From a virus (lineage: Duplodnaviria > Heunggongvirae > Uroviricota > Caudoviricetes): a stretch of 24,163 nt of DNA. Shown here one piece after another: positions 13,221 to 13,808 of the stretch (its first letter is position 1; the number at the start of each line of letters is the position of its first letter). A program made the position numbers and the translations under genes. The DNA is taken from positions 1-24,163 of the IMG/VR virus record IMGVR_UViG_2565956616_000001. One strand, 5' to 3'. The notes under the pieces are model-generated. The model saw nothing but the letters and a program-made list of their open reading frames with translations. It had not been told where the DNA came from and did not search any database.

Positions 13221-13735
13221 GCATAAGAGAGCTAAACCTCACCAAAGAACAGCACGATTGGCTGAATGGCTGGCTTGAACTGTGGGGCGCATGGGTTTAT
13301 TCAGGTCGTCTGGAAAAGCGCATGAGCAGCGTAATAGCGAAGTTCATGGAGAGCGTAGAGCCGGGAAGAGTTATGACAAGGCCAATGTGCAATGATGATG
13401 ATGGAATGTTGATTTCTCAGGTCGTCGATTCCGTCATGTACATTGACAAAAAAGCCTTTGGCATCCTCCTCAGCTACTACGCTCATGGTTCATCTAAGCG
13501 AGCAATTGCATCCTACTATCACGCGACTGCAAAGCCACGCAAGATGTGTGGACGTGGTGGCGAGGGATGGAGAAAACCTTCACTGGCAACCTGTAGAAAC
13601 GAAATTGACGACATCCTGAAAGCGTCATTATTTGTTTTGTACCAACCAATGCAAAATGCTTTCAAAATGCGTAAACGTGTTGAGAAAGTTAAGCATGTTG
13701 CTGTTAAAAACCTTGACATGCAATTAGCCATTTAG
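13217..13735 (+). CDS. late-gene antiterminator Q-like protein
   Basis: Last gene of the nin operon immediately upstream of a promoter and terminator pair and the lysis genes; Cys-containing 172-aa protein. Assignment is positional; family not confirmed. Confidence 0.55.
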   Translation: MSIRELNLTKEQHDWLNGWLELWGAWVYSGRLEKRMSSVIAKFMESVEPGRVMTRPMCNDDDGMLISQVVDSVMYIDKKAFGILLSYYAHGSSKRAIASYYHATAKPRKMCGRGGEGWRKPSLATCRNEIDDILKASLFVLYQPMQNAFKMRKRVEKVKHVAVKNLDMQLAI

Positions 13736-13742
13736 CCATAAT
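13713..13742 (+). promoter_or_regulatory. candidate late promoter pR' (-35 TTGACA 13713-13718, -10 CATAAT 13737-13742)
   Basis: Consensus -35 hexamer with 18-bp spacer to a -10-like hexamer, overlapping the 3' end of the Q-like gene as in lambda. Confidence 0.4.
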
Positions 13743-13783
13743 ATTCACATATGCTGCTGCTTTTGCATTCAGCAACCATCACA

Positions 13784-13808
13784 AGCCCACCTCCTGTGGG
13801 CTTTTTTG
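13784..13808 (+). terminator. rho-independent terminator (tR'-like), about 40-60 nt downstream of candidate pR'
   Basis: AGCCCAC-CTCCT-GTGGGCT hairpin followed by TTTTTT. Confidence 0.6.

Follow-up and report, generated by a model that had tools for sequence, protein, structure and literature searches.

The closest described counterpart of the locus treated here is the late-gene switch of phage 21, whose antiterminator Q21 is known from several structures (PDB 6P18-6P1C, 6JNX and 6JNY) and whose sequence record (OL657228) annotates, with references, a -35 hexamer, an upstream and a downstream subsite of the Q-binding element (QBE; subsites QBEu and QBEd), a -10 hexamer, the transcription start site, a sigma-dependent pause element (SDPE) and a terminator, followed by tRNA-Asn and tRNA-Thr genes. 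The QBE of phage 21 is a direct repeat in which C:G pairs at positions -21 and -13 are required, and residues H95, A124, R127 and R128 of Q21 contact its bases (Shi et al., PMC6606751). In vitro, Q21 loads on a template that retains only positions -40 to -1 of pR'21 and the SDPE at its native position, with an otherwise artificial transcribed region (Yin et al., bioRxiv 10.1101/651190), and the read-through assays of Q21 used the phage 21 terminator tR' (PMC6606751). The pR'-qut-tR' arrangement of phage lambda resembles the present locus in logic only, in that a constitutive late promoter with a Q site in its spacer is combined with sigma-dependent pausing near the promoter, termination of the leader and read-through that depends on Q; the lambda Q protein belongs to an unrelated family (Pfam PF03589), lambda needs an additional -35-like element (PMC6606751), and its leader is 194 nucleotides (nt) long against the approximately 58-60 nt predicted here. 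Here, positions 13713-13808 of the virus record IMGVR_UViG_2565956616_000001 (Caudoviricetes) are described, the whole analysed stretch of 24,163 nt being called the window throughout. With high confidence, this segment is read as the late-gene switch of a lambdoid prophage of the phage 21 family, an assignment that is built on homology, register, co-variation and RNA folds and from which the start site, pausing, termination and Q dependence are predicted. Switches of this kind are well understood, and close relatives already have theirs annotated; the one unusual and new feature here is the apparent replacement of the start of the leader by a homing-endonuclease cassette.

The gene that ends within the switch (13217-13735, plus strand) encodes a protein of 172 amino acids (aa), which the preliminary description had called Q-like. 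This open reading frame (ORF) matches Pfam PF06530 (E 1.3e-25, 90 bits, in a Pfam search of the ORFs), and its product matches the phage 21 Q structures 6JNX and 6P18 at E 2e-91 (6JNX, E 2.4e-91, over residues 1-162). The protein is 85% identical to the structure-solved Q21 and 97-98% identical to the Q proteins of Sf6, HK75 and HK629 (98% for Sf6 gene 59 and HK75), so the name is borne out and can be narrowed to the phage 21 family of Q antiterminators. It differs from Q21 at two of the base-contacting residues, with R95 for H95 and N128 for R128, and it carries a 10-residue C-terminal tail that is not present in Q21. Unlike in phage 21, the longer Q gene overlaps its own promoter: the TAG stop codon (13733-13735) and the last four Q codons fall within the predicted binding site of Q itself. 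As a separate observation, the minus strand within the Q gene contains TTGCGTGGCTTTGC at 13529-13542, which fits the CII-binding consensus TTGCN6TTGC and aligns with the annotated site of the antisense promoter paQ in phage 21; the segment downstream of it, GATAGTA.GATGCAAT, is conserved. The TTGCN6TTGC pattern alone is not significant (2 observed against 1.95 expected).

The promoter pR' consists of a TTGACA -35 hexamer at 13713-13718, inside the 3' end of the Q ORF, and a CATAAT -10 hexamer at 13737-13742, which begins two bases after the stop codon. With a spacer of 18 nt and 11 of 12 consensus matches, it was the top site of the consensus scan between 10000 and 18000, and no other site with at least 11 of 12 matches was found on either strand of the whole window. 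A match of this quality is insignificant alone, as a window of the same size and composition is expected to hold 0.38 by chance and one turns up in 30% of Markov shuffles, and the case therefore rests on context and comparison: the significance of the promoter comes from its position at the 3' end of the Q gene, from the terminator that comes after it, and from base-by-base conservation in register in more than 120 related loci. The predicted transcription start, A13749, is the seventh base past the -10 hexamer and is homologous to the annotated start of phage 21. When the alignment is anchored on the pause hexamer, the window matches every switch element of OL657228 in register. TTGAC was kept, across genera, in every locus in which a promoter was placed by script, and the architecture of TTGAC, two 8-bp repeats, a -10 hexamer, 7 nt and the hexamer T-A-N-N-N-T is retained from Escherichia to Morganella, Photorhabdus and Edwardsiella. 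Sf6 has the homologous site labelled, on the basis of its resemblance to phage 21, as putative late promoter, qut site and tR', and HK75 has it labelled as pR' and Tr'; the BTP1 transcriptome paper does not describe a pR' start. The preliminary description had proposed a consensus TTGACA and CATAAT overlapping the 3' end of the Q gene, a start near 13749 and a pR'-qut-tR' arrangement, and these proposals agree, respectively, with the 11 of 12 matches found, with the position homologous to the phage 21 start, and with the homology to the annotated pR' of Sf6, HK75 and phage 21. It was also observed that strong sigma-70-like matches are scarce on both strands of the whole window, with only 2 sites that reach 10 of 12 against 6.3 expected from Markov shuffles, which fits selection against stray promoters in phage DNA.

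Two 8-bp direct repeats occupy the promoter spacer between the -35 and the -10 hexamers. The predicted QBEu, AATTAGCC, lies at 13722-13729 in the register of the phage 21 QBEu ATTGAGCA, and the predicted QBEd, ATTTAGCC, at 13730-13737 in the register of the phage 21 QBEd AATGAGCA, the phage 21 sequences having been taken from the annotation of OL657228 and the text of PMC6606751. Both cytosines are retained as in phage 21, C13728 being position -21 and C13736 position -13, and the half-site reads TTAGCC in the window against TGAGCA in phage 21, alongside R95/N128 against H95/R128 in the Q protein. The pairing of site and protein was examined by tabulating the half-site of each locus against Q residues 95, 113, 124, 127 and 128; the set comprised 80 closely related loci on viral contigs and 36 more varied ones in bacterial genomes that range from Escherichia to Morganella, Photorhabdus and Edwardsiella. 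Among the 30 distinct combinations of Q and site, which come from related loci so that the counts are not independent events, asparagine at residue 128 went with T at half-site base 4 (10/10) and arginine with G (19/19); arginine at residue 95 went with C at base 8 (14/15) and histidine, tyrosine or leucine with A (15/15); and arginine at residue 124 went with G at base 5 (5/5). The residue-128 and residue-95 pairings were seen in all four possible combinations (TGAGCA, TGAGCC, TTAGCA and TTAGCC). This is the pattern that direct readout by residues 95, 124 and 128 predicts, and it is good evidence that 13722-13737 is the cognate Q site. By the same comparison, the Q21 family appears to use a simple readable code (residue 128 for base 4, residue 95 for base 8 and residue 124 for base 5), and the window Q is predicted to be a specificity variant of Q21 that, with R95 and N128, reads TTAGCC instead of TGAGCA. 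The upstream repeat is also polymorphic among otherwise nearly identical phages: AATTAGCC was found in 62 loci including the window, and the variant AATTATCC in 25 loci including HK629, HK75 and CUS-3. In AATTATCC, the AGC core of the weaker subsite is disrupted, and the penultimate Q residue becomes S instead of A.

Past the -10 hexamer, a predicted sigma-dependent pause element, TATGCT, lies at 13750-13755 (+2 to +7) in the register of the phage 21 SDPE TAAGCT. Wherever a complete promoter was obtained, a T-A-N-N-N-T hexamer was placed 35-37 nt past the first base of the -35, at 36 or 37 nt in all but three genera; the distance is 37 nt in the window and 36 nt in phage 21, whose -10 hexamer is AACACT instead of CATAAT. 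TAAGCT accounted for 80 of the loci and TATGCT for 22, the latter being closer to the -10 consensus and keeping the critical A2 and T6. The leader that follows contains a predicted 5' stem-loop (13752-13774), shared as a predicted fold by Hafnia phage yong1, and the first terminator, tR' number 1 (13783-13807), an intrinsic terminator with an 8-bp stem, a 5-nt loop and six Ts that was found by scan and RNA fold and is annotated as a rho-independent terminator in HK629. Its hairpin, AAGCCCAC-CTCCT-GTGGGCTT, spans 13783-13803, begins 41 nt past the -10 hexamer and, as RNA, has a folding energy of -12.5 kcal/mol (z -3.5), and the T run extends to 13807. The RNA fold of 13749-13808 as a whole consists of the 5' stem-loop and the terminator hairpin (-21.5 kcal/mol, z -4.6). 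The strong intrinsic terminator that the preliminary description had placed about 40-60 nt downstream is thus present, and its expectation of a transcript far shorter than the 194-nt 6S RNA of lambda agrees with the predicted terminated RNA, which would run from 13749 to approximately 13806-13808. Since the phage 21 equivalent is approximately 46 nt, a short leader is normal for the Q21 family.

Several further searches concerned this leader. In the two leader hairpins no compensatory changes were found, and the few variants differ in the loops or make one mismatch. No Rfam family matched anywhere in the window at gathering scores; at E up to 1, the sole match in 13600-14950 was Pseudomonas P9 on the minus strand (18 bits), which was rejected as spurious. 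A 60-aa ORF (13751-13933) spanning the terminator was rejected as a gene, for it has no Pfam match and is not kept where the leader precedes other DNA. The spacer between the first terminator and the start of the HNH gene described below folds no better than shuffles (z -1.4). In L056, a related viral contig, the leader of the window type is broken in the terminator loop (…AAGCCCACC|CAGCGTTCGC…), which suggests a further insertion or rearrangement there.

The terminated RNA of approximately 58-60 nt might be more than a by-product of the switch, although we consider this improbable. Promoters of the pR' type are constitutively active in lysogens, and there is a precedent in StxS of Shiga-toxin phages, a short RNA that likewise arises in lysogens from constitutive termination at tR' downstream of pR' and that binds Hfq and regulates host genes (PMC7547250). 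The predicted RNA contains a pair of stable hairpins and ends in a U tract, and the leader sequence is 78% identical between the Escherichia coli phages and the Hafnia phage. StxS, however, derives from a 258-nt leader that is cut by RNase E to 74 nt, and it is associated with a different type of Q (144 aa). The window leader has no Rfam match, its conservation is explicable by the pause element and the terminator alone, and non-homologous leaders replace one another freely among family members, which argues against a conserved function in trans.

The leader of the window is not that of phage 21. Homology to Sf6, HK75, CUS-3, BTP1, ST64T and approximately 50 other phages, as delimited by a sensitive search with 13690-13830, stops exactly at 13742, the last base of the -10 hexamer, and no homology was found between 13749-13808 and the phage 21 transcript TAAGCTGCCGTTAGTGACTCTTAAGTTGCAACGGTGGC-T7. 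In Sf6 and HK75, which share the promoter and the TTAGCC-type repeats identically up to that base, and in CUS-3, CATAAT is directly followed by TAGAAGG-TAAGCTGCCGTTAG..., that is, by the phage 21 pause element TAAGCT and its terminator. In the window, alignment with these three phages places a 705-bp segment (13743-14447) where they have the 7-bp TAGAAGG. The segment contains the substitute start region, pause element and first terminator together with an HNH endonuclease gene (13930-14442, plus strand), and the substitute TATGCT is spaced from the Q site exactly as the original hexamer was. At 14448, the match to phage 21 sets in again. An orphaned pause element, TAAGCT (14448-14453), identical to the phage 21 SDPE and approximately 700 nt from the promoter, is followed by tR' number 2 (14449-14491), with its hairpin at 14449-14487 and six Ts at 14486-14491, which is identical in sequence and fold to the phage 21 tR' from TAAGCT to GGC. 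The second terminator, which the preliminary description had put at 14451-14492, is therefore real and is the displaced original leader. It is promoterless, as the consensus scan found no promoter-like site in front of the second pause element. Compared with phage 21, the window accordingly has an unrelated first leader (13743-13808), and the original pause element and tR' have moved 700 nt downstream behind the HNH gene. Because the 705-bp unit lies between the -10 hexamer and the old pause element, the endonuclease gene falls within the predicted Q-controlled unit, with a terminator on either side.

The HNH gene encodes 170 aa with HNH_3 (PF13392, E 2e-18) and AP2 (PF00847, E 2e-8) domains and is of the free-standing homing-endonuclease type. 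The protein is 99.4% identical to the HNH protein of HK629; the next relatives, at approximately 45%, are annotated as homing endonucleases, and a PDB search returned a plant AP2 domain as the sole match. The whole region 13100-14900 is 98% identical to HK629 (JQ182735), which shares the composite leader, the HNH gene and both terminators; in the HK629 record, only the first terminator is annotated, and the QBE, the SDPE and the second terminator are unmarked. The Q end of the region is 96-98% identical to Sf6, HK75, CUS-3 and many P22-like and lambda-like phages. In the literature searched on HK629 and on homing endonucleases in lambdoid late promoters, the composite arrangement was not found described.

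The leader types were scored among 124 loci. The phage 21-type leader alone was present in 74 of them, the substitute leader followed by the HNH gene and the phage 21 leader, with identical junctions, in 16 (including the window and HK629), and the substitute leader alone in four (Hafnia phage yong1, L034, L047 and L056); the PhiR12 phages carry the substitute leader with a truncated HNH gene. Among the 16 composite loci, the cassette has a mean identity of 99.4% against 98.2% for the adjoining Q gene, many of the outer flanks are unrelated, and a tRNA-Asn gene may or may not be present after the second terminator. The full composite arrangement was found in 39 of 5426 complete E. coli genomes. 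This distribution fits a mobile endonuclease cassette, and it also fits a single insertion that spread through flanking recombination. In yong1, the substitute leader is combined with phage 21-type TGAGCA/TGAACA repeats and a Q with R128, a mixture which shows free recombination, at the -10 hexamer, between the module of the Q site and that of the leader. A different ORF of HNH type (169 aa) lies in the related viral contigs L034 and L047 (approximately 2309-2820), after the hairpin slot described below and before the holin gene, and the window HNH gene is not present there; endonuclease genes have thus entered the late leader region more than once.

Free-standing HNH genes of the T4 mobE type offer the nearest comparison for the unit. 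They too are small genes that join an HNH to a DNA-binding domain, occupy an intergenic slot inside a late unit with a terminator before them, and show a presence/absence polymorphism with precise junctions, which here takes the form of 16 loci with identical junctions against 74 with an uninterrupted phage 21-type leader. Unlike the mobE type, the window unit would also supply a replacement for the promoter start region and the pause signal, together with its putative nuclease. Tentatively, the 705-bp unit may be a mobile HNH cassette that lands on the 7-bp start-site segment of Q21-type late promoters and brings its own start region, pause element and terminator, so that the late switch stays working; the nuclease would come under Q control, silent in lysogens and on late in infection, the allele that carries the cassette would probably be resistant to its own nuclease, and the displaced pause element and tR' would serve as a second gate. 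Taken jointly, these propositions make a possible reading that we hold to be clearly less probable than the assignment of the switch itself.

If the composite promoter functions as the phage 21 one does, sigma-70 RNA polymerase would start from pR' at A13749, sigma region 2 would re-bind the -10-like TATGCT, and the polymerase would pause at approximately +14 to +18 and backtrack. In the absence of Q, most transcripts would stop at the hairpin and the six Ts (13805-13808), giving the RNA of approximately 58-60 nt with two stem-loops, and any leak-through past the first terminator would meet the phage 21 tR' after the HNH gene. When Q is present, two protomers on the repeats AATTAGCC and ATTTAGCC (13722-13737) would engage the paused polymerase; as for Q21, the upstream protomer would load and form a ring or "nozzle" in the RNA exit channel, blocking hairpin formation. 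The Q-modified polymerase would then read through the first terminator, the HNH gene and the second terminator into the lysis and head genes.

It might instead be held that the 705-bp insertion broke Q loading and disabled the switch, leaving a decaying prophage remnant whose late genes are without Q control. From +1 on, the transcribed region is indeed non-homologous to that of phage 21, and the GCCGT...CTTAAG motif typical of the family is absent. That motif, GCCGT-N-GTG-N-CTTAAG (+8 to approximately +30), was observed in nearly all Q21-family leaders (e.g., L100, L105 and L116) except those of the window type, even where its hairpin is not the terminator and a separate terminator comes after; it is dispensable for Q21 in vitro (bioRxiv 10.1101/651190). 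The disabled switch is nevertheless very unlikely. The substitute leader has a -10-like hexamer, TATGCT, which stands at the same distance from the QBE and is nearer to the consensus than TAAGCT; Q21 tolerates full replacement of the transcribed region if the SDPE stays in place (bioRxiv 10.1101/651190), and its loading on the template of Yin et al. makes a replaced transcribed region compatible with function. The same leader serves alone in yong1, L034 and L047, and the composite arrangement occurs with intact flanking genes in 16 loci and in HK629, which was deposited as an isolated phage and from which normal growth is inferred. Considering the Yin et al. template, the hexamer nearer to the consensus, the leader found alone and the isolation of HK629 together, we think that the composite promoter probably still works. 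The composite leader in HK629 and in 39 E. coli genomes, and the substitute leader in the PhiR12 phages, indicate that the arrangement persists in functional-looking phages.

Some points weigh against reading 13713-13808 as a late switch. Every function is assigned by homology; the promoter match is of a quality that chance produces at the rate given above, and its 18-nt spacer is 1 nt longer than the optimum and than that of phage 21. Two of the six positions in the repeats deviate from TGAGCA, the sequence defined by experiment, and the window Q has its 10-residue C-terminal tail where the C-terminus of Q21, which has no such tail, contacts the polymerase (bioRxiv 10.1101/651190). The T tract of the first terminator is only six long, with two of its Ts paired with the stem, and the substitute leader is without the GCCGT...CTTAAG motif seen after the pause element in nearly all other members of the family. 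Finally, the depositors of HK629 put a "putative pR'" after the first terminator, at the equivalent of approximately 13895 of the window; this position was rejected because its hexamer is TCTACG and no sigma-70-like site was found there in the scan, and the annotation is regarded as mistaken. That the promoter match is a chance one, with the 13783 hairpin ending the early (Q) transcript and the true late promoter elsewhere, e.g., at the place annotated in HK629, draws on the insignificance of the 11 of 12 match alone and on that HK629 label, but it is hardly credible, given the lack of a sigma-70-like site at the HK629 position, the retention of the -35, repeats, -10 and pause hexamer in register across genera while the adjacent sequence diverges, the co-variation of the repeats with the DNA-contact residues of Q, and the labelling of the homologous site as pR' in Sf6, HK75 and phage 21.

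Around the switch, by Pfam, NinH and RusA genes lie upstream of Q, and a holin gene, an endolysin-sized ORF and Rz lie downstream; this lysis cassette (14932-16179, plus strand; PF05106 and PF03245), in the same order as in HK629, Sf6 and HK75, provides the first late genes of the switch. In phage 21, too, a short leader with an intrinsic terminator precedes the lysis genes, and the phage 21 and Sf6 genomes carry tRNA-Asn and tRNA-Thr genes after tR'; a tRNA scan of the window found no tRNA genes.

Just past the second terminator, a long hairpin was observed at 14497-14575 (plus strand). Its near-perfect stem, CACAAC-GGTAAGAGCATTG ... CAGTGCTCTTATC-GTTGTG, encloses a 44-nt interior, and the fold has an energy of -42 kcal/mol (z -3.5). 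A hairpin slot of this kind is also present in L022 (2085-2290), L031, L034, L044, L052, L095, L097 and L104. The outer stem is kept in related loci, with compensatory changes in Pantoea and Erwinia, and the interior consists of at least six unrelated sequences of 35-175 nt that are exchanged among loci. No Rfam family matched the window version of the hairpin. In the related viral contigs L022 (2104-2150) and L043, the interior of the slot, equivalent to 14515-14560 of the window, opens with a sequence that contains all core nucleotides of a type I hammerhead ribozyme (CUGACGAG...GGACGAAAC...GUC), with an Rfam Hammerhead_1 score of 24.7 bits (E 0.036) that is under the gathering score of 34. 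At the slot, the CUS-3 record carries the labels bsq3 and bsq4, and the hairpin may serve as an RNase III site, as a slot that accommodates small structured RNAs or as a "boundary sequence" for recombination. Its right arm with approximately 25 nt after it (14555-14594) recurs at 90-97% identity in unrelated phages, namely P1, P1-like plasmid phages and several Klebsiella and Salmonella phages, where it is nearly always unannotated. The P1 copy (NC_005856, 69804-69843; L124, 401-440) lies approximately 300 nt after a tRNA-Asn/tRNA-Thr pair that resembles the pair after tR' in phage 21 and Sf6.

A late promoter whose leader is terminated is, in itself, textbook biology, and the practical value of the present description lies in the correction of annotation, as the promoter of this arrangement is either not annotated or annotated at the wrong place in HK629 and many E. 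coli prophages. What makes the locus interesting is the replaced start region, which embeds an endonuclease gene, together with the duplicated terminator and the readable pattern between Q and its site. The co-variation of Q residues 95, 124 and 128 with the repeats predicts which Q cross-activates which prophages and offers a set of orthogonal antitermination switches; the recognition code, if true, would set up late switches that are orthogonal to one another. For this family, the composite leader amounts to a natural experiment, in which the region past the -10 hexamer is exchangeable wholesale if a -10-like hexamer stays in register, and it suggests that a selfish endonuclease gene can settle in a key regulatory region of a phage without breaking it.

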